DNA of 64,000 bases from Myxococcaceae bacterium (GTDB lineage Bacteria > Myxococcota > Myxococcia > Myxococcales > Myxococcaceae), in the NCBI GenBank assembly GCA_044223505.1, contig JBGALX010000012.1:90174-154173 (forward strand). The letters run 5' to 3'. Numbering within the stretch: position 1 is the stretch's first letter; every line of letters starts with the position of its first letter. The position numbers and the translations under genes were made by a program. Shown here piece by piece: positions 4,187 through 13,200 of the stretch. The notes below the pieces were generated by a model. That model was not told the DNA's origin. It saw only the letters and a list, made by a program, of their open reading frames with translations, and searched no databases.

Positions 4187-4319
4187 GGAGCTCGTGCAGG
4201 AGCACGGATCAGACCGCCGCCAGGTGCCGGACCGCCTTGGCCACTGACCAGGTCTCTTCGGACCTGGGCCAGGGTTTTCTTTCACATGCTGATCCACCCC
4301 AGGTGTCGTGTGGGTCGAT

Positions 4320-5735
4320 ATGCGTCTCTTCCTGGTCCTCACGGCCCTCGCGGTCGTGTCTTGTGGCGCGCCTTCACGCCGGCCCTGCTCGGCCGACACC
4401 TGCGGCGGTTGCTGCTCCGATGACGGCGTCTGCAAGCCAGGCGGGACTCCCGACGCCTGCGGCATCAACGGCTCGCAATGCAGCGCGTGCTCGGGCGGTC
4501 AGCAGTGCCAGATCGGCGTCTGCCAGGGCGGCAGCGGCGGCAGCGGCGGCACCGCCGGCGGCACGGGCGCGACGGCGGGCGGAACAGGCACGAGCGCTGG
4601 CGGAGGCACGGGCGCGACGGCCGGCGGCGCTTCGACCGCAGGCAGCGGCGGCACCAGCGGAGGCACCGGCGCGACGGCCGGCGGCAGCGGCGGCACCGCG
4701 GGCGGCAGCGGCAGCGGCGCCTGCAACGCGACGAACTGCGGCTTCGGGTGCTGCAACGGCAACGTCTGCGAGCTCGGCACCTCGAGCGGCGCGTGCGGCA
4801 AGGGCGGCGGCTCGTGCTCGGCGTGCGGCGCAGGCACGTCGTGCCAGAGCCAGCAGTGCGCTCCGGTCGTGACCGGCTGCAACAACGCGTCGTGCGCGTC
4901 GGGCTGCTGCAACGGCAACACGTGCGAGCTCGGCACCTCGAACGGGGCGTGCGGCTCGAACGGCAACGCATGCATCGGCTGCGGCTCGGGCCTCGCGTGC
5001 CAGAACCAGGCGTGCGCGCCGGTGAACCCGATGGGCTGCAACGCGTCGACGTGCGCGAGCGGCTGCTGCCAGAACGGCGTGTGTCAGAGCGGCACCTCGC
5101 ACGCGGCCTGCGGCACGGGCGCTCAAGCGTGCAGCGCGTGCGGCACGAACGAGGTCTGCGCGGGCGGGCGCTGCGTGAGCTCGAACCCCGGCGGCTGCGG
5201 CCCGATGTCGTGCAACGGCTGCTGCGCGAACGGCGTGTGCCTGCCAGGGGGCGACACGACCGCCTGCGGCAGCGGCGGCGCCTCGTGCCAGCTGTGCATC
5301 GGCCTCTGCTTCGGAGGTCTCTGCGTCTCGGTGCTGCCCGGAAACGGCGGCGGCGACGGGGGCACCGGCGCTCCGTGCACGCAGTCGGGTCAGTGCGAGA
5401 ACTTCGGGTTCCTCGAGACGTCGCGCTGCATCGGCGAGCGTCGCGCCGACGGCGGCCTCTCGGGCTGGGTGTCGGGCTACTGCTCGTCGACGTGCCTGCT
5501 CGGCTACTGCCCGGGCAACGGCACCTGCCTCTCGGACGGCAACTGCTACTCGCCGTGCAGCACGCCGGGCCAGGGCCGCGGCAGCTGCCGCGTCGGCTAC
5601 GTGTGCATTCAGCTCGTGAGCGCCTCCGACGGCGGCATCATCGCCGGCTCCGGAGTGTGTCAGCCCGACTGCCGCAACGCCGGCGTGTCGTGCGCGCCTG
5701 GCCATTCGTGCAGCGCGCAGGGCTACTGTCTCTGA
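4320..5735 (+). CDS. Secreted Cys-rich repeat lipoprotein (myxobacterial-type cysteine-rich repeats).
   Basis: Signal peptide plus lipobox (MRLFLVLTALAVVSC), a Gly/Thr/Ala linker, then 5 or more repeats of C.A(S/T).C(A/G).GCC.NG.C..GTS..ACG. Compare TIGR02232-type myxobacterial disulfide-rich repeats (family name recalled from memory). Confidence 0.75.
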   Translation: MRLFLVLTALAVVSCGAPSRRPCSADTCGGCCSDDGVCKPGGTPDACGINGSQCSACSGGQQCQIGVCQGGSGGSGGTAGGTGATAGGTGTSAGGGTGATAGGASTAGSGGTSGGTGATAGGSGGTAGGSGSGACNATNCGFGCCNGNVCELGTSSGACGKGGGSCSACGAGTSCQSQQCAPVVTGCNNASCASGCCNGNTCELGTSNGACGSNGNACIGCGSGLACQNQACAPVNPMGCNASTCASGCCQNGVCQSGTSHAACGTGAQACSACGTNEVCAGGRCVSSNPGGCGPMSCNGCCANGVCLPGGDTTACGSGGASCQLCIGLCFGGLCVSVLPGNGGGDGGTGAPCTQSGQCENFGFLETSRCIGERRADGGLSGWVSGYCSSTCLLGYCPGNGTCLSDGNCYSPCSTPGQGRGSCRVGYVCIQLVSASDGGIIAGSGVCQPDCRNAGVSCAPGHSCSAQGYCL

Positions 5736-5769: not shown

Positions 5770-7998
5770 TCAGGCCGAGACGCGCTCGACGTTCGCGAGC
5801 ACGTGCTTGTGCCACGGCGTCCCCACCCACGGGTCGCAGTCGGCCGCGCGCGTGAGCTCGTTGGGCGCCACGCCCGGAGCCGTGCCGTCAGCGAGCGTCG
5901 TGCCGAGCCCGTTCGGCAGCGAGACGTGGCCGCGCTGCATGGTGGGCGAGACCTCGGCGACGACCTCGCGCGAGCCGGCCTTCGTGGTGAGCCGCACGCG
6001 GTCGCCGCTCGCGACGCCGAGCCGCTGGGCGTCGTCGGGGCTGATGCGCAGCGCTCCGGCGGCGTCGGTCTTCCGCCACGCGGGCTCTCGCATGATGGTG
6101 TTCGCGGTGAACGAGCGGCGCTCGCCGGCCGACAGCACGAACGGAAACGCGGCGTCGGGGCGCGGCGGCCCATCGCGCAGCGCGGCCGCGAGCTCTTCGA
6201 GCAGGTCGGGCAGGCAGAGCTGAACGGTCGCGAGCTTCGCGAGCATCGCTTCCCAGGTGTCGACGGCGAAGACGAGGCCTTGGGGCTTCGCGAGCATCGC
6301 GCTGAACAGCGCGGCGGCGGCCTCGAGCGGCTCGCCTGCGAAGCCGGCGCGGGCGAGGGCTTCGGGGTGCTCCATCGCGGCCTTCGCGGCGAGGCCGAGC
6401 AGCACGGCGCCCTCGCGCTGCGCCGCCGGCACCGGAGCCGTGCGGTAGAGCAGCACCGGCGCCTGCGCCGAGAGGCGGGGCTCGGTCAGGGTGAGCTCCA
6501 TCAGCTTCGACGCGTAGGCGACGAGGCCCTCTGTGGCCGCGGCGCGCAGCGGGGCGTAGTCGGCCTCGCTCACCTCGCCGAGCGCTTCGCAGAGGCGCGC
6601 GTGAATCTCGGCCTCGGGCAGCGTGCCGGGCAGCGGGTCGAGCAGGCGGGGCCGCAGCTGGAAGACGTTCTTCGGGAAGTCGAAGTTGAAGAACGTGGCC
6701 TCGGCCTTCTCGAACTGGGTCGAGGCCGGCAGCACGTAGTGGGCCTCGCGCGCGGACTCGGTCATGGCGACGTCGATGACGACGACGGTGTCGAGCGCGC
6801 GCAGCGCCTCGCGGAAGCGGGGAGACTCGGCGAGCGAGTGGGCCGGGTTCGCGGCCTCGATGAGCATCGCGCGGTAGCGCTTCGGGTGGTCGGTGAGAAT
6901 CTCGTCGGCGATGGCGTTGCACGGAATCATGCCGCCGACGATGAGGGCCTGGGCGACGGGGCTCTTGCGGCTCGAGGCTCCGCCGAACAGCGAGACGAGC
7001 GTCGTGGGGATGTAGTGGGAGCCGGGCCGGCCGATGTTCCCCGTGAGCGCGACGAGCAGGTAGTGCAGATAGCTGACGAGGGTCGAGTGCAGGTTCATCT
7101 GCACGCCGAGGTCTTCGAAGCTCGCCATCGACTTCGCCTTCGCCATGATGCGTGCGGTCTTGCGCACGAGGGCCTCGTCGACGCCGCAGGCGGTCGAGCA
7201 GGCGGCGACGCTGACGCTCGCGAACGCGGCCTCGACGTCGGCGAGGCCGGCGGTGTGCTTCGCGATGAAGTCGGCGGCGACGAGCTTCTCTTCGAGCAGC
7301 ACGCGCACGAGGCCGGCGAGCAGCCACGCGTCGGTGCCGGGCTTCACCTGCAGGTGAATGTCGGCGAGCTCGGCGGTCTCGGTGCGGCGCGGGTCGACGA
7401 CGATGAGCGTGCGGTTCGGGTCCTTCGCGAGGCTCTTCAGCGTGACGCGCGCGCGGGGGATGGAGTGCGAGTGCCACGGGTTCTTGCCGAGGAAGAACGC
7501 GACCTCGCAGTGGTCGAAGTCAGCGCGCGTGGCCGAGCCGAACATGCGGTCACCGACCCAGAACTGGCCGGTCTTCTCTTGCGCGAGGGCGCTCGAGCGG
7601 TAGCGGGAGCCGAGCGCGCGCCGCGTGGCGGTCGCGTAGGCGCCGGGCAGGTGGTTTCCCTGGCCGCCGCCGCCGTAATAGAAAATCGTGTCGCCGCCGT
7701 GGGCGTCGCGCACGCGCTCGAGTCGCGCGGCGACCTCGCGAATCGCCGTGTCCCAGTCGATGGGCTCGAAGGAGCCGTCGCTCTTGCGGCGCAGCGGCGT
7801 GGTGATGCGGTCGGGGCCGTGCTGGTAGTGGTCGAGCCGGTGGGCCTTCTCGCACGCGTAGCCCTGCGAGGCGGGGTGGGCGTCGTCGCCGCGCAGCTTC
7901 ACGAGGTGACGGTGGTCTGCGCCGCCGAGCTGAACCTCGAGGCCGCAGTTGCACTCGCAGAGGATGCAGGCGGTCGTCTTCCACTCGGGGGCGGTCAT
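5770..7998 (-). CDS. Molybdopterin-dependent oxidoreductase (formate dehydrogenase / assimilatory nitrate reductase family), cytoplasmic.
   Basis: N-terminal CILCECNCG Fe-S cluster motif and a molybdopterin oxidoreductase fold across 742 aa. No Tat signal. ATG at 7998. Confidence 0.9.
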   Translation of the reverse strand: MTAPEWKTTACILCECNCGLEVQLGGADHRHLVKLRGDDAHPASQGYACEKAHRLDHYQHGPDRITTPLRRKSDGSFEPIDWDTAIREVAARLERVRDAHGGDTIFYYGGGGQGNHLPGAYATATRRALGSRYRSSALAQEKTGQFWVGDRMFGSATRADFDHCEVAFFLGKNPWHSHSIPRARVTLKSLAKDPNRTLIVVDPRRTETAELADIHLQVKPGTDAWLLAGLVRVLLEEKLVAADFIAKHTAGLADVEAAFASVSVAACSTACGVDEALVRKTARIMAKAKSMASFEDLGVQMNLHSTLVSYLHYLLVALTGNIGRPGSHYIPTTLVSLFGGASSRKSPVAQALIVGGMIPCNAIADEILTDHPKRYRAMLIEAANPAHSLAESPRFREALRALDTVVVIDVAMTESAREAHYVLPASTQFEKAEATFFNFDFPKNVFQLRPRLLDPLPGTLPEAEIHARLCEALGEVSEADYAPLRAAATEGLVAYASKLMELTLTEPRLSAQAPVLLYRTAPVPAAQREGAVLLGLAAKAAMEHPEALARAGFAGEPLEAAAALFSAMLAKPQGLVFAVDTWEAMLAKLATVQLCLPDLLEELAAALRDGPPRPDAAFPFVLSAGERRSFTANTIMREPAWRKTDAAGALRISPDDAQRLGVASGDRVRLTTKAGSREVVAEVSPTMQRGHVSLPNGLGTTLADGTAPGVAPNELTRAADCDPWVGTPWHKHVLANVERVSA

Positions 7999-8068
7999 GG
8001 GGCCGCATTCCGCTGCCGGGCCGCCCAGAACGCAAGCTCAGGCGTTGCCGATGAGCCCTTCGCGCTCG
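7985..8068. repeat. Direct repeat copy 1 (about 84 bp, about 94% identical to 8849-8933) flanking the TA cassette.
   Basis: GGGGGCGGTCATGGGGCCGCATTCCGCTGCCGGGCCGCCCAGAACGCAAGCTCAGGCGTTGCCGATGAGCCCTTCGCGCTCG. It contains the real start codon of the oxidoreductase gene and an unused copy of the ...EREGLIGNA* C-terminus of the upstream hypothetical gene at 8903-9370. Confidence 0.85.
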
Positions 8069-8138
8069 AGCACTGGAAGCCATCGTGACGTAGGCGGCAG
8101 TGGCACTGGTCGGTTGCCTCGCACGGAGCCTGTTGTCT

Positions 8139-8157
8139 TTGTATGCTCTGTCATACA
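8139..8157 (+). promoter_or_regulatory. Candidate antitoxin operator: inverted repeat TGTATG-N6-CATACA just upstream of the ParD Shine-Dalgarno sequence.
   Basis: A 6-bp perfect inverted repeat in an AT-richer stretch (ctttgtatgctctgtcatacaggagatacaacaATG). An AGGAGA Shine-Dalgarno lies 9 nt before the ATG. Confidence 0.4.
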
Positions 8158-8169
8158 GGAGATACAACA

Positions 8170-8433
8170 ATGGCATCTAGCGACGTGCTGACAGTTCGCC
8201 TGCCGGCCCCCGTGCGAAAGCGGCTCGACGCACTCGCGAAGTCGACTGCTCGGAGCAGGTCATGGCTGACGGTCGACGCGATTGAGAAGTACCTGCAGGA
8301 CAATGAGTGGCAGCTCCGGGCCATCGAGGAGGGTCTGGCTGACTCGAGGCGCGGGCGTCTCGTCGACCATGAAGAGGTGGAGGCCTGGCTCGAGACGTGG
8401 GGGCGCAAAGGGAGCAGAAGGCGCGCGCGATGA
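8170..8433 (+). CDS. parD: ParD/CopG-family ribbon-helix-helix antitoxin (type II TA).
   Basis: MASSDVLTVRLPAPVRKRLDALAKSTARSRSWLTVDAIEKYLQDNEWQLRAIEEGLADSRRGRL... Lower GC than its surroundings. The stop overlaps the toxin start (ATGA). Confidence 0.8.
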   Translation: MASSDVLTVRLPAPVRKRLDALAKSTARSRSWLTVDAIEKYLQDNEWQLRAIEEGLADSRRGRLVDHEEVEAWLETWGRKGSRRRAR

Positions 8434-8714
8434 GGGTGCGGTGGTCGTTCGCTGCAAAGCGGGATCTCGTCGAGCTGCATGACTTTCACACCGATGAGCC
8501 GCAGCTCGCGCGGCGCGCTGCACGGGCGATCATCGACGCGGTGCGGTTGTTGCGGGCGAGCCCCGGGCTGGGTCGTCCCGGCCGGTTTCCCGGTACACGC
8601 GAGCTGATGATCCCGCGAGTCGGCTACGTGATTCCGTACACGATCGTCAGGGGCGAGCTGCACCTGCTGCGGCTGCTGCGTTCCGGCGTTCCGTGGCCCG
8701 ACAGCCTCGACTGA
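8430..8714 (+). CDS. parE: ParE/RelE-family toxin (type II TA).
   Basis: MRVRWSFAAKRDLVELHDF...IPRVGYVIPYTIVRGELHLLRLLRSGVPWPD. It has a 4-nt overlap with parD. Confidence 0.8.
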   Translation: MRVRWSFAAKRDLVELHDFHTDEPQLARRAARAIIDAVRLLRASPGLGRPGRFPGTRELMIPRVGYVIPYTIVRGELHLLRLLRSGVPWPDSLD

Positions 8715-8848
8715 GGCCCGGTATGAAAGTCGCGTTCCAGCACAGGAGCGCAGTGACGAGAACCCGGTAATGGAACGCGCCTTGCCAGCACGGCTGCCCG
8801 ATGCCGACCTTCGGCGTCACCGGGCGACCCTACAACGAAGCCGGCGCG

Positions 8849-8933
8849 TCGGGAGCGGTCATGGGCCCGCCATTCCGCTGCCGGCCCGCCTAGAACGCAA
8901 GCTCAGGCGTTGCCGATGAGCCCTTCGCGCTCG
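8849..8933. repeat. Direct repeat copy 2 of the TA-flanking repeat.
   Basis: Carries the real stop of the gene at 8903-9370 (…EREGLIGNA*) and a dead start MTAPDAPASL*, where the copy 1 reading MTAPEWKTT... opens the oxidoreductase. Confidence 0.85.
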
Positions 8934-9370
8934 GCGGCGGCCAGCAGCCTGTCGGCCGGCGTCTCTCGCGCGCGGGCGGCGTCTTCGAGGGCGGCGCGGC
9001 CCGAGGCGTGAATCGAGAACGGCACGCCCGGCGAGACCATCGCCGCGAGGAGCGTGAGGATGGCGCGCTGCAGGTTCGCGAGCACGCCGCCGCCTTCGAT
9101 CGCGAAGTGAATCGAGAACGCCGACGAGCGGATGGTGTCGCTCTCGCTCGAGAGCACCGCGCGGAACTCTTTCGACGGCGCCTGCAGGTGGCCGGGCACC
9201 ACGCCGACGAACGTGACCTTGTCGTCTCTGCCGAGCTCTCGCGTGACCTTCAGCAGCGCGCGGGCGGTCTCGGCGTCGGGAGGCGTCGTGAAGCGGACCA
9301 CGAGAATCTGCCCGAACACGCGCCAGGAGATCGACGATCGAGCTGGGCCGGGCTCGAGGGACGTGAGCAT
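8903..9370 (-). CDS. Hypothetical protein (156 aa).
   Basis: High GC3. ATG at 9370 gives MLTSLEPGPARSSISWRVFGQILVVRF... No recognisable domain. It lay upstream of the oxidoreductase before the TA cassette was inserted. Confidence 0.5.
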   Translation of the reverse strand: MLTSLEPGPARSSISWRVFGQILVVRFTTPPDAETARALLKVTRELGRDDKVTFVGVVPGHLQAPSKEFRAVLSSESDTIRSSAFSIHFAIEGGGVLANLQRAILTLLAAMVSPGVPFSIHASGRAALEDAARARETPADRLLAAAEREGLIGNA

Positions 9371-9462
9371 GCCCCGACCAAAGCAACGCCGCCCGTGGCG
9401 GAGCAAGGTGCACAACCTGCTGCGCGCTAATTCGACCAATCACCTCGCGTGCGCCGGGTCGG

Positions 9463-9740
9463 TCGAGACCCGGCGCCGCAGAGATGGTTCAGGCGACCAG
9501 GCCGTCGAGCTGCTGCCGCAAGATGTGGAGGCGCGGGCCGAGCGCCTGCACGTCGCCTCTCTGCAGCGCGTTGAGCCGGGCGCGCAGCTGCGAGACCTGG
9601 TCGAGACCCGGCGCCGCTGAGACGGATCAGGCGACCAGGCCGTTGAGCTGCTGCCGCAAGATGTTGAGGCGCGGCCCGAGCGCCCGCGCGTCGCCGCCCT
9701 GAAGGTCGTTGAGCCGCGCGCGCAGCTGCGAGACCTGGTC
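9463..9740. repeat. Tandem duplication (2 copies of about 135 bp) of the 3-prime end, stop codon and about 25 bp of downstream sequence of gene 9627-10424.
   Basis: GGTCGAGACCCGGCGCCGC.GAGA...TCAGGCGACCAGGCCGT.GAGCTGCTGCCGCAAGATGT.GAGGCGCGG.CCGAGCGCC.GC.CGTCGCC......GTTGAGCCG.GCGCGCAGCTGCGAGACCTGGTC occurs twice. The distal copy would encode ...LRARLNALQRGDVQALGPRLHILRQQLDGLVA* after the functional stop. Confidence 0.8.
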
Positions 9741-10424
9741 GGGCGTGAGCTGCCCGCTCTGCTCGGCCGCGTCGATGCGCTCGCCGAGCGACTGCACCGT
9801 CTTCTGTGGGTCGACCTGCGCGTCGTGGCGCTCGCGGAAGATGGCGCGGTTCAGCTCGTTCACCGTCATCGTCTCGGGCGTGGCGCCGAGCTGCCCGACG
9901 CGGTCGGTGAGGCGCTGCGCTTCGTCGGCGGTGAGCGAGCCGTCTTGCACGCCGGCCTGAATGCGCGAGGTGAAGCTCGCCTTGCGCTTCTCGACGTCCA
10001 GCTCGCCGTCGTGGCGCTCGGCGCGCACGTCACGCGAGAGCGCCTTCAGCTGCTCGGGAGTCTGCGCCGCGTCGAGCCGCGACTTGAGCGCGTCGTGCTC
10101 TGCTTGCGTGAGTGAGCCGTCGGCGAGGCCGCGCTCGATGCGGCGGCCGATGTTCTCGCGGCGCTTCGCGGGGTCGATCTGATCATCGTGCTTGAGCTGG
10201 CGAATGTTGCCGCCGATGCCGTTGAGCAGGCGCTGCTGCTGCTGCAGGCGCGACGAGCCGTCGCCGTCGAACGCGTCGTTCTCGATGCGGCTCTGGGCCT
10301 TGTCGAGGCGGCCGCGCAGCCGCGAGGCCTCGTCGTCGCTCAGGGTGCCGGCGCGGACTCCCTGGTTGATGCGGCGGTGCTGGTTGGCGATGCGCTGCTC
10401 GACTGAGGCGAAGGAGGTTCTCAT
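9627..10424 (-). CDS. Internally repetitive (about 50-aa units) charged alpha-helical protein, function unknown.
   Basis: Protein repeats of (D/A)G(S/T)LT.DEA..L..RLD..Q. ATG at 10424. No signal peptide. Confidence 0.65.
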   Translation of the reverse strand: MRTSFASVEQRIANQHRRINQGVRAGTLSDDEASRLRGRLDKAQSRIENDAFDGDGSSRLQQQQRLLNGIGGNIRQLKHDDQIDPAKRRENIGRRIERGLADGSLTQAEHDALKSRLDAAQTPEQLKALSRDVRAERHDGELDVEKRKASFTSRIQAGVQDGSLTADEAQRLTDRVGQLGATPETMTVNELNRAIFRERHDAQVDPQKTVQSLGERIDAAEQSGQLTPDQVSQLRARLNDLQGGDARALGPRLNILRQQLNGLVA

Positions 10425-10613: not shown

Positions 10614-12344
10614 TCAGGTGCCGAGCACGGTCTGCGCGGCGCGCAGGTACGCTTCGCAGCGAACCTTCCACACGAGCAAGATGGCGTCGTCGACGTCCTG
10701 CAAGGTCCAGCTGGCGAGCGGCTTGGCGGCGAGCGTGCCGAAGACGGCGCGGCGGTCCCACGTGCCGCCGAACAGCGGAGCGAGGTGCTGCGCGTCGCCC
10801 GGCAACCCCAGCGACCACTCGGTCATGATGATGCGCCACAGGTCGGTGAGAAACGGCGCGAGCCCGGGCTGGGTGCGGTTGTTGGCGACGTACTGCCGCG
10901 CGTTGCCGAGCGCCCAGGCGTACGCGTCCCACAGGAAGATGCCGTCGAGCGGGTGGCCGCCGGCGCGCGCGCCGCGCTGAATGCCCTCGAGCGAGTTGAG
11001 GAACACGGGGAACGGCGCGCGCACCTGGCCCGAGGTGACGTACGTGTTGCTCGAGTCGAGCCACAGCGCGCCGGCGTCGGCGTTCCAGTCGGGCCAGTCC
11101 CAGAAGTCGGAGGCGTTCGGCGGCCGCGTCTCGCTGGGGCCGACCGCGTGCCCGCTGAAGAACATCAGCGCCGAGACGTAGGGCACGAGGGTGCGCGGCC
11201 GGTCGGGGTTCGCCTGAATCCACTCGGCGAGCGCCTTCACGTCTTCGTACTGGTAGGCGGCCTCGGCGCTCAGCCCGGCCCGCGGCCCGGCGTCTTCTCG
11301 CGTGACGTCGACGACGTTCACGTCGGGGAAGCCGCCGACCAGGTAGTACGACGGGGCGACGACGTCCTGCTCGCGCAAGAAGGGCTGCCACTCGGGCAGG
11401 GCGTACGCGGCGCCCATCCAGTCGCGGCCGAACTCGCGCAGGAACGAGCCCATCGCCGGCGGGTAGCGGCCGCCGTCGTGGAAGTGGTCGTAGCGGACGT
11501 CGAGCGGGCCTCCGCCGACCACCGCGTGCATGCCCGCCGCCGCCATCGGCACCGTCGCCCACTGCCAGGCGCCTGGGAACTCGCCGCCGTCGAACGGGTA
11601 GCCGCTCGGCCAGGTGGGGCTTCGGTACGCACGCAGCGCTGCCTCCGAGAAGTAGAACGTGTTGCCGACCGCCGCGCCGTAGAAGCTCAGCGGCTTGCCG
11701 CCGTCGGGCGCCGCGCTGCCGAACCTCGCTGCGAATCGCGTGACGACCGAGCTCACCGCCGCCAGGTTCCCCGCATACGACGGCTGAGCCCGGCCCAGCT
11801 GCGTCGGGTTCGGCACGATGGCTCCTTCGATGTCGAGCCCGAGAAAGACCTGGCGCACCGTGCTGGCGTTCAGCTCGGCCTGCACGCGAGAGAGGTACGC
11901 GAGCCCTCCGTCGACCGACCACTCGGTGCCCGCATTCGCCGGGCCGATGACGTTCCAGTTGTAGCCGTTGCCGTACGTGTAGCCGACGCTCGCGTCCGTG
12001 CTCGACGCGAACGCTCGCGCCCCCGCTCGCCACGCCGGGTTCGTCCGGTTGCCGAAGCTGGGCGTGATGACGTCCTCTACCTCGGTGATGACGTAGAGGA
12101 AGCGTGGCGGTGGAGCTCCGGCGTCGGTGCCCGCGTCGCTCGGCGTGCCTCCCGCGGTCGAGCCTCCTGCGGTCGAGCCTCCTGCGGTCGAGCCTCCCGC
12201 GGTCGAGCCTCCTGCGGTCGAGCCTCCTGCGGTCGAGCCTCCTGCGGTCGAGCCTCCTGCGGTCGAGCCTCCATCAGGGCTTGATGACGTGGGACACGCT
12301 GCGAGCAGCGCCAGCGCCACCATCGCCGCGCGACGAAGAGCCAT
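10614..12344 (-). CDS. Lipoprotein with a (GGSTA)8 linker, function unknown.
   Basis: MALRRAAMVALALLAAC lipobox, then 8 exact GGSTA repeats, then a roughly 500-aa domain rich in W, Y and G. High GC3. Confidence 0.75.
   Translation of the reverse strand: MALRRAAMVALALLAACPTSSSPDGGSTAGGSTAGGSTAGGSTAGGSTAGGSTAGGSTAGGSTAGGTPSDAGTDAGAPPPRFLYVITEVEDVITPSFGNRTNPAWRAGARAFASSTDASVGYTYGNGYNWNVIGPANAGTEWSVDGGLAYLSRVQAELNASTVRQVFLGLDIEGAIVPNPTQLGRAQPSYAGNLAAVSSVVTRFAARFGSAAPDGGKPLSFYGAAVGNTFYFSEAALRAYRSPTWPSGYPFDGGEFPGAWQWATVPMAAAGMHAVVGGGPLDVRYDHFHDGGRYPPAMGSFLREFGRDWMGAAYALPEWQPFLREQDVVAPSYYLVGGFPDVNVVDVTREDAGPRAGLSAEAAYQYEDVKALAEWIQANPDRPRTLVPYVSALMFFSGHAVGPSETRPPNASDFWDWPDWNADAGALWLDSSNTYVTSGQVRAPFPVFLNSLEGIQRGARAGGHPLDGIFLWDAYAWALGNARQYVANNRTQPGLAPFLTDLWRIIMTEWSLGLPGDAQHLAPLFGGTWDRRAVFGTLAAKPLASWTLQDVDDAILLVWKVRCEAYLRAAQTVLGT
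12153..12272. repeat. 15-bp perfect tandem repeat x8 (GCGGTCGAGCCTCCT), coding for the (GGSTA)8 linker on the minus strand.
   Basis: Read directly; a single C/T variation between units. Confidence 0.9.
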
Positions 12345-12380
12345 CACGTAGCAGCATACGACGATCGGCCGCCGCGCCCC

Positions 12381-13200
12381 TTGCGTGCGACCGCTGACTG
12401 CTGGTGCGCTCCTTCGGGTATGCGAACCGGTTGGCTGCTCGTGGTGCTGCTCATCGGCTGCCATGCAGCGGTGGAGTCGCCTCTGCCGCAAGACGCCGGC
12501 AGCGCAGGCGGCACGCCGCTGTCGGCGACTGGCGGTGGTTCTGCGGGCGGTGACTCCGCCTCGGGCGGCGGCACTTCGGGCGGCGGCACTGGGGCTACGC
12601 GTTGGTGCTGAGCCCCCGCCCCACGTCGACGCGGAGCGTGCACACCGGCCACCCGGCTTTCCTTCTCAACACCACCGAGATCAACACGCTGAAGCAGCTC
12701 ATCACTCAGCCGACCTACGTCCAGGCGCGTTGGCAGCGGGTCAAGGCGCTGGCGGACGCGACGGTCGCGGGCACCGACCTGAACGGCAAGCCGCTCCCGA
12801 ACCGCAACTTCACCGATTGGCCGACCCGCAGCTCAGGCTACGGAGCGCCGCAGTACGTTGGCCGCCCGACTGCTGCCCTCGCGATGGCATTCCTGATGAC
12901 CGACGACGTCGTGTACGCCCCAGCGGGCGGCAGAGATTCTCAACGCCTTTCGCCTCGGAGGAGGTCTGGGAGGCGGGAACTCGTTCGACGGCCTCAAGGG
13001 CACGTTCCTCTAGTCGCTCTTGTTCGCCTACGACGCCATCTACACCTCAGGCGCGCTGAGCTCGGTCGAGAAGAACCAGCTCGAGAGCTGGTTCAAGGGC
13101 ATCGTGCCGATGAGCCAAGGTCAGACGTACTGCGCAGACCAAGGGCAGCGGTCAGCCCAGGTGACGCTGCAGATGCCCATGGGTGACGCCTCGGCGCGCA
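12381..13200 (+). pseudogene. Decayed lipoprotein gene with an alginate-lyase / heparinase II/III-like N-terminal region, broken by at least two frameshifts and truncated.
   Basis: Frame 0 gives the signal peptide and lipobox MRTGWLLVVLLIGC plus a Gly/Ser linker, then a stop. Frame 2 gives ...HTGHPAFLLNTTEINTLKQLITQPTYVQARWQRVKALADATVAG...ALAMAFLMTDDVVYA. Frame 0 returns with ...LLFAYDAIYTSGALSSVEKNQLESWFKGIV. Coding signal then fades. Confidence 0.5.

Follow-up and report, generated by a model that had tools for sequence, protein, structure and literature searches.

A toxin-antitoxin operon between duplicated copies of a gene junction in a Myxococcaceae genome: a probable insertion with long duplication of the target

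A type II toxin-antitoxin (TA) operon lies between a molybdopterin oxidoreductase gene and its upstream neighbour in a 64,000 nt stretch of the genome of a Myxococcaceae bacterium (GenBank assembly GCA_044223505.1, contig JBGALX010000012.1, positions 90,174 to 154,173 of the forward strand). This whole stretch is referred to as the window, and positions are those of the window. The operon was probably acquired horizontally and entered the gene junction in an event that also duplicated 84 bp of that junction, this being an insertion with long target duplication. Such an insertion is favoured because the repeats are sharp and abut the insert, the insert is foreign, the repeat consists of host sequence in both its halves, and the TA pair is intact. 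It is favoured also because there are no terminal inverted repeats, no recombinase in the ORFs tested and no repeat hairpins, and because repeats of this kind are rare. The locus is seen as a further case of a known but rare mode of insertion, to which it adds a new kind of cargo, and the central interpretation offered by an earlier sequence-only reading of this DNA holds on the internal evidence.

Duplicated gene junction

The two copies of the direct repeat are 84 nt (copy 1, 7985–8068) and 85 nt (copy 2, 8849–8933) long, and both directly adjoin the 780 nt insert (8069–8848), designated X. A repeat search and a pairwise alignment both recover the two copies, and a base-by-base comparison counts 80 identical positions out of 85 (94.1%), which bears out the two repeats of about 84 bp and about 94% identity that had been described around the cassette. 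The differences are four substitutions (7990G/8854A, 8002G/8866C, 8020G/8885C, and 8026C/8891T) and an extra C at 8870. The boundaries of the repeats are sharp, with the pairwise alignment of the flanks falling to the random level beyond them. The right-hand side of both copies is a 42 nt identical stretch (8027–8068 and 8892–8933), the sole segment shared between the copies that is of sufficient length for homologous recombination. Within the window a 41 nt core is found at exactly two places, and it is absent from 100 shuffles.

Each copy contains the live end of one neighbouring gene, a 39 nt spacer, and a dead end of the other gene, all read on the minus strand. In copy 1 the live part is the start of the oxidoreductase, MTAPEWKTT (ATG ACC GCC CCC GAG TGG...), of which the repeat contains the ATG (7998–7996) and a further 11 nt. 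The dead part is the tail of the upstream gene, EREGLIGNA* (8038–8068, with the stop at 8038–8040), which consists of the last nine codons and the stop. Copy 2 has the reverse arrangement. The real EREGLIGNA* terminus of the upstream gene (8903–8933, with the stop at 8903–8905) is here accompanied by a dead oxidoreductase start, MTAPDAPASL* (8862–8830; ATG ACC GCT CCC GAC...), which meets a stop after ten codons. The sole coding difference between the copies (7990/8854, GCC to GCT) is synonymous.

Homologues of the two genes identify which ends are native. Oxidoreductase homologues begin MTAPEWKTTAC, and the nearest of them (locus L001) reads ATG ACG GCC CCC GAG TGG AAA, encoding MTAPEWK. Homologues of the upstream gene have GLIG-like tails, and the nearest of these (locus L082, 80% nucleotide identity) ends in KGLIGAS and a stop. 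Residues G173 and L174 of the upstream gene are invariant in all four known homologues, and this C-terminal G-L is retained in copy 2. Reading frames and homologue termini therefore agree with the earlier assignment of the functional MTAPEWKTT start to copy 1 and of the functional LIGNA* end to copy 2, and the orphan LIGNA* of copy 1 and the MTAPDAPASL* of copy 2 are indeed dead versions, as had been proposed. As judged from these termini, the upstream gene evidently has its native tail in the right half of the repeat unit, and the oxidoreductase gene its native head at the left end. Since the unit is made up of the native ends of both host genes, one contiguous junction would have existed before it was doubled. 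With a stop codon, the 39 nt spacer and the following start codon all included in the duplication, neither neighbouring gene has lost an end, and the insertion is therefore tolerated.

Composition and gene content of the insert

X is compositionally foreign. Its GC content is 65.5%, as against 71.0% for the window, and it is the lowest-GC stretch among all 780 nt windows of the 64 kb (0.5% tail). The GC content at third codon positions (GC3) is 0.77 for the antitoxin gene (z = −4.9) and 0.81 for the toxin gene (z = −3.6), compared with 0.924 ± 0.031 in 34 host genes. The sequence-only reading had noted a cassette visibly richer in AT than its surroundings and flanked by the repeats, both of which stand, while its length of about 790 bp becomes 780 nt on measurement.

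Two genes are encoded on the plus strand of X. The first (8170–8433) encodes an 87 aa antitoxin of the ribbon-helix-helix (RHH), CopG/ParD-like type, with an N-terminal RHH domain that matches the Pfam families RHH_5 (PF07878, 27.8 bits, cut-off 26) and RHH_1 (PF01402, 25.1 bits, cut-off 20.5); the protein also matches PDB chain 6xrw_B (E = 7.8e-12). The second (8430–8714) encodes a 94 aa toxin of the ParE/RelE superfamily, with a match to Pfam ParE_toxin (PF05016, 41.3 bits, cut-off 23) over profile positions 1–83 of 89 and to PDB chains 6xrw_A and 7etr_C. In both of the solved complexes 6xrw and 7etr, one chain is matched by the antitoxin and the other by the toxin. The antitoxin gene precedes the toxin gene, and stop and start overlap in ATGA (8430–8433), this being the 4 nt overlap described previously. 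In NCBIfam both proteins score below threshold, as RelB-like (42.2 bits, cut-off 50) and RelE_StbE (26.1 bits, cut-off 27.9). The pair can on these matches safely be placed among the ParE/RelE-superfamily type II TA modules, with gyrase or ribosome-bound mRNA as the possible target of the toxin. The ParD/ParE name given earlier is thus a reasonable label through the Pfam ParE_toxin and RHH matches, but not a proven one, with NCBIfam offering only RelE_StbE and RelB-like matches.

Among 5.8 billion proteins, the nearest relatives of the toxin are 46–47% identical. Homologues on plasmids share no more than 40% identity, and many of these have a CopG-family antitoxin partner. No flanking repeats are present at the locus of the nearest toxin (L086), the cassette DNA has no match in plasmid or phage collections, and a search of viral contigs gave no relative of the toxin. 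The pair resembles plasmid and chromosomal ParE/RelE-family modules with CopG/RHH antitoxins in its gene order, gene overlap, RHH domain, promoter inverted repeats and protein lengths (87 and 94 aa), but is only 38–47% identical to its nearest relatives.

The non-coding parts of X are found on either side of the genes. On the 5' side, nested inverted repeats (TGTTGT and ACAACA around TGTATG-N6-CATACA; 8131–8169, plus strand) overlap a GGAG ribosome-binding site and form a hairpin on folding. These nested hexamers correspond to the upstream inverted repeat picked out in the sequence-only reading, and they are a candidate operator for the RHH antitoxin, having the layout expected of an RHH operator. 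On the 3' side, 134 nt (8715–8848, plus strand) contain two hairpins (8727–8746/8764–8783 and about 8800–8818), with no T-run and no matching Rfam family. By consensus, neither a σ70 promoter nor an intrinsic terminator was found in the locus.

Signatures of mobility

The repeats had been suggested as possible attC or att-like sites, and this is the part of the earlier interpretation that did not survive. Neither copy, on either strand, folds better than shuffled sequences (z from −1.0 to +0.6), direct reading finds neither a GTTRRRY core on either repeat strand nor an AT-rich dif-like centre in the repeat, and there is no recombinase domain among the neighbouring genes tested, over about 10 kb. 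The main part of that interpretation, a footprint of insertion by duplication of the target junction, is supported by the foreign insert, the host gene ends in the repeats, and their live and dead halves.

Other kinds of mobile element were considered and rejected. An integron gene cassette is not indicated, there being no intI or integrase domain among the neighbours and only two copies of the repeat rather than an array. The open reading frames (ORFs) tested between 2.6 and 23 kb include no recombinase or transposase domain, which also argues against an integrase island; these neighbouring ORFs are ordinary myxobacterial signalling genes. For an insertion sequence, a miniature inverted-repeat transposable element or another transposon, the ends of X lack an inverted repeat (score 12, against 13.3 ± 2.3 in shuffles) and the 84 bp duplication is far above the 2–14 bp of such elements.

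TA genes are a frequent cargo of integron cassettes and dif modules. The locus is like TA-carrying integron cassettes and pdif modules in being a small, promoter-containing TA cargo bounded by repeats. It is unlike them in that the repeats here are host gene ends, do not fold, and have no attC or dif features, and in that there is no IntI nearby.

Comparison with insertions with long target duplication

Insertion with long target duplication has been described for restriction-modification (RM) gene complexes (Nobusato et al. 2000, Gene 259:99; Furuta, Abe and Kobayashi 2010, PMC2853133; reviewed in PMC3874152). These complexes have no mobility genes and are flanked by direct repeats given as 30 to about 420 bp or as 46–423 bp, of which a single copy is present in the empty-site genome (PMC2853133; PMC3874152). 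A start or stop codon is often included in the repeats, which leaves the target genes intact, the inserts are of deviant GC content, and DNA breakage has been suggested as a common cause (PMC2853133; PMC3874152). A life cycle of excision, amplification and reinvasion has been proposed for RM units by Kobayashi's group (PMC2853133).

The class is defined by direct repeats of more than 30 bp that abut an insert shorter than 20 kb, by the lack of mobility genes in or beside the insert, and by a repeat that is found nowhere else in the genome. At the present locus, repeats of 84 and 85 nt and 94% identity are found on both sides of X, and within the 64 kb window there are exactly two copies of them. 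X is 780 nt long and contains TA genes only, with no integrase or transposase in the ORFs tested. Its cargo is a TA pair rather than an RM complex, and the resemblance is one of insertion mode. Within the window, the locus shows all the structural features of the class except for the RM cargo and a demonstrated empty site. Like the RM insertions of Kobayashi and colleagues, it has a short, integrase-less cargo of the addiction type with deviant GC content and long repeats of host sequence over a stop and a start. It differs from them in its type II TA cargo and its myxobacterial host, and in that an empty site is seen only in the published cases. No earlier report of this insertion mode for a type II TA module was found in the literature searched, the coverage of which was limited.

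The mechanisms of chromosomal TA transfer and loss were still described as poorly characterised in a 2026 study (PMC13617665), and its Discussion says the same of the routes by which stand-alone TA modules enter chromosomes without a carrier element. The present locus is a clean and fully readable case, in which the cargo is a TA operon alone and the long duplication spares both neighbouring genes. It is one instance, lacking an empty site, and remains an anecdote. Were it general, it would favour the view that addiction modules have a way of genome invasion in common, and the signature to screen for would be a small cargo bracketed by 40–500 bp duplicates of a gene junction.

A neighbouring tandem duplication and a possible mechanism

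A second duplication is located 530 nt from the TA locus. Two tandem units of 138 nt (9461–9598 and 9599–9736) are 90% identical, and are present also in contig L081 (2436–2716), which comes from the Logan assembly (k=31) of read set SRR28480386. Each unit comprises 36 codons from the 3' end of the next gene (265 aa, 9627–10424, minus strand) together with its stop and the 27 nt that follow, the downstream unit being a dead copy. A partial third unit of 5 nt is present, suggesting microhomology at the joint of the duplication. This duplication looks like an insert-free version of the process that placed the cassette.

The frequency over 1.59 Mb of related sequence is about one per 200 kb for tandem duplications of such size and about one per 500 kb (three loci) for spaced direct repeats. 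Background rates are low and it is therefore unlikely that two such duplications would lie within 1.7 kb by chance; a post hoc estimate for a tandem duplication within 1 kb on either side of the cassette is roughly p = 0.01. The neighbouring insert-free duplication is the most suggestive of the additional clues. The only other spaced repeats in this screen are at two loci, both from actinobacterial metagenome-assembled genomes (MAGs): L047 (12882–12963, 16990–17069, and 20463–20539) and L045 (6222–6302, 13270–13463, and 16841–17030). These repeats are 75–194 nt long, 90–94% identical, and 3.4–7.5 kb apart.

The favoured but conjectural route to this arrangement is a staggered break, fill-in and capture by end joining. 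If two nicks, or the sides of a resected double-strand break, were some 84 nt from each other, each end would carry the junction as a long single-stranded overhang, and filling in of both overhangs would generate a full copy of the junction on each end. A linear foreign fragment could then be captured between the filled ends by end joining, the joins being blunt and without microhomology, as they are at this locus. Were the ends religated with nothing captured between them, the result would be a plain tandem duplication such as the 138 nt one. Repair of offset breaks made by paired nickases in plants and human cells is similar in that the stretch between the offset breaks is duplicated, with or without filler DNA, and the likeness covers both the 84 bp flanking duplication and the neighbouring 138 nt tandem one. 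It differs in having been shown in plants and human cells, and not in bacteria for units of about 100 bp or for gene-sized inserts. We know of no bacterial demonstration of offset-break duplication at such a scale.

Once in place, the cassette would act as an addiction module, in which the antitoxin would repress the operon at the inverted repeats and neutralise the toxin. Such behaviour is expected from the known properties of this TA family. Excision of the cassette by way of the 42 nt identical core is plausible, and loss by recombination across this core would restore a perfect junction and leave the stable toxin behind.

A broader interpretation is that type II TA modules, like RM units, are autonomous minimal mobile elements that invade by insertion with long target duplication, which for now seems improbable. 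It would entail that the repeats allow excision as circles (here of 865 bp, with one copy of the junction), amplification, and homologous re-entry, an equally doubtful step. ParE-type toxins poison gyrase, and it is conceivable, if again improbable, that toxin-provoked DNA breakage drives the insertion and that the 138 nt duplication is a scar of the same break-repair activity.

Alternative explanations

Several points weigh against the insertion with long target duplication that is preferred here. All five differences between the copies are in the left 43 nt, with four of them in the spacer, and there are none in the 31 nt dead gene tail. This clustering is not what uniform neutral decay would give, although the test is weak (Fisher p = 0.055, n = 5 differences). 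A single-copy ancestral junction has to be inferred, with no empty-site genome, and end-joining capture in the source organism is a conjecture. The linear order rests on one assembly. The Logan contig (L081, 3273 nt) is 100% identical to window positions 12176–8904, but breaks within the repeat and may derive from the same reads; it ends exactly 30 nt into copy 2, as expected of a 31-mer graph, and so does not confirm the linear order. Read set SRR28480386 contains the source organism.

The main rival, though an unlikely one, is a Campbell-type integration, in which a circle carrying the cassette and one copy of the junction, perhaps excised in a sister cell or related strain through recombination between such repeats, entered by a single homologous crossover at the junction. 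The differences between the copies would then represent divergence between donor and recipient rather than decay after duplication. The map is exactly that which a single crossover gives, and the 42 nt identical core is available for it. Four of the five differences being in the spacer, and the sole coding one synonymous, it is as if the junctions had been under selection in separate lineages, which would also explain the unchanged 31 nt tail, and a cycle of excision and reinvasion of this kind has been proposed for RM units by Kobayashi's group (PMC2853133). However, the clustering is not significant and the numbers of differences are too small to separate the patterns. The question of origin is only moved back, as the first junction-cassette-junction unit still needs a source. 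No other lineage with the junction or the cassette was found in the collections searched, where identity to the closest relative is 47% for the toxin and 73% for the upstream gene. In addition, an 865 bp circle would have no replication or transfer function.

It is far less probable that the locus arose in two steps, with a plain 84 bp tandem duplication of the junction and the later, independent insertion of a cassette between the copies. The tandem duplication of a gene end 530 nt away indicates that this locus can acquire and retain duplications of the kind. The insert, however, is exactly at the boundary of two complete copies, a chance of about 1 in 85 given roughly 85 nt of dispensable sequence. 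Insertion elsewhere would have split one of the copies, and no split copy is seen.

Site-specific recombination would make the repeats the attL and attR of an integrase-less element mobilised in trans, an integron attC cassette, or a Xer/dif module. The repeats do include the 3' end of a gene, like the targets of many integrases, and TA genes are common cargo. The repeat unit also contains 14 nt of the coding start of the next gene and the whole of the spacer, and is therefore a host junction rather than a site borne by the element. With no dyad symmetry or hairpin beyond chance, no GTTRRRY, no AT-rich dif-like centre, no integrase in or near the element among the ORFs tested, and no further copy of the repeat in the window, this explanation is very unlikely.

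An assembly artefact, in which a separate molecule sharing the junction was woven by the assembler into a chromosome with a single junction, is equally hard to credit. In a de Bruijn graph the integrated form and an empty site plus circle do share all k-mers below the 42 nt core, and the k=31 Logan contig stops within the repeat. The five differences, however, mean that the copies cannot be one pile of reads that was collapsed or duplicated. Ordinary reads, like the final-round k-mers of modern assemblers, are longer than the core, and an 865 bp circle with no replication gene could not persist alone.

Flanking genes and the search for related junctions

The molybdopterin oxidoreductase gene (5770–7998, minus strand) encodes 742 aa with three Pfam domains and an intact N-terminus. 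A scan of genome contigs identified 80 related loci, the best being L001, from an Archangiaceae MAG, with 88% amino acid and 86% nucleotide identity, and nothing closer than 88% was found in the protein database. Window positions 5770–8005 align with positions 8481–10706 of L001 at 86% DNA identity, the homology being confined to the ends of the gene and stopping 7 nt upstream of the oxidoreductase ATG. No neighbouring gene within about 10 kb is common to the window and any of the 80 loci. As the homology stops at the gene ends and no neighbours are shared, the oxidoreductase gene appears to be in a non-syntenic context.

The upstream gene (8903–9439, minus strand) has no assigned function and encodes 138–178 aa, depending on the choice of start. 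Only four homologues exist among the 5.8 billion proteins, the closest being 73% identical, and no oxidoreductase is present in the contexts of these homologues (L082–L085). Metagenome scans with a degenerate gene-tail pattern and with a profile of the upstream gene found nothing, and the junction is not shared by any genome or metagenome contig searched. Exact look-ups of the toxin, the antitoxin and the oxidoreductase, tried with several start codons, returned no record. The toxin, the upstream gene product and the oxidoreductase are each a singleton protein cluster, and the source genome is represented once.

Other repeats in the window

Three further repeat regions are present. An ORF of 475 aa (4308–5735) is cysteine-rich, with internal repeats of about 150 nt, motifs of the C-x-x-G-C-C type, Gly/Ser/Thr/Ala-rich linkers, and no Pfam match; it overlaps the end of an annotated response-regulator ORF, so its start is uncertain. 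A tandem array of 15 nt units (about 11 units, 12114–12293) encodes (GGSTA)n on the minus strand, near the N-terminus of a 625 aa protein (10614–12491) with no Pfam match. At 242–2177, about seven periodic repeats of 273 nt, which are 61–80% identical, presumably belong to the gene of a large repetitive-domain protein at the edge of the window.

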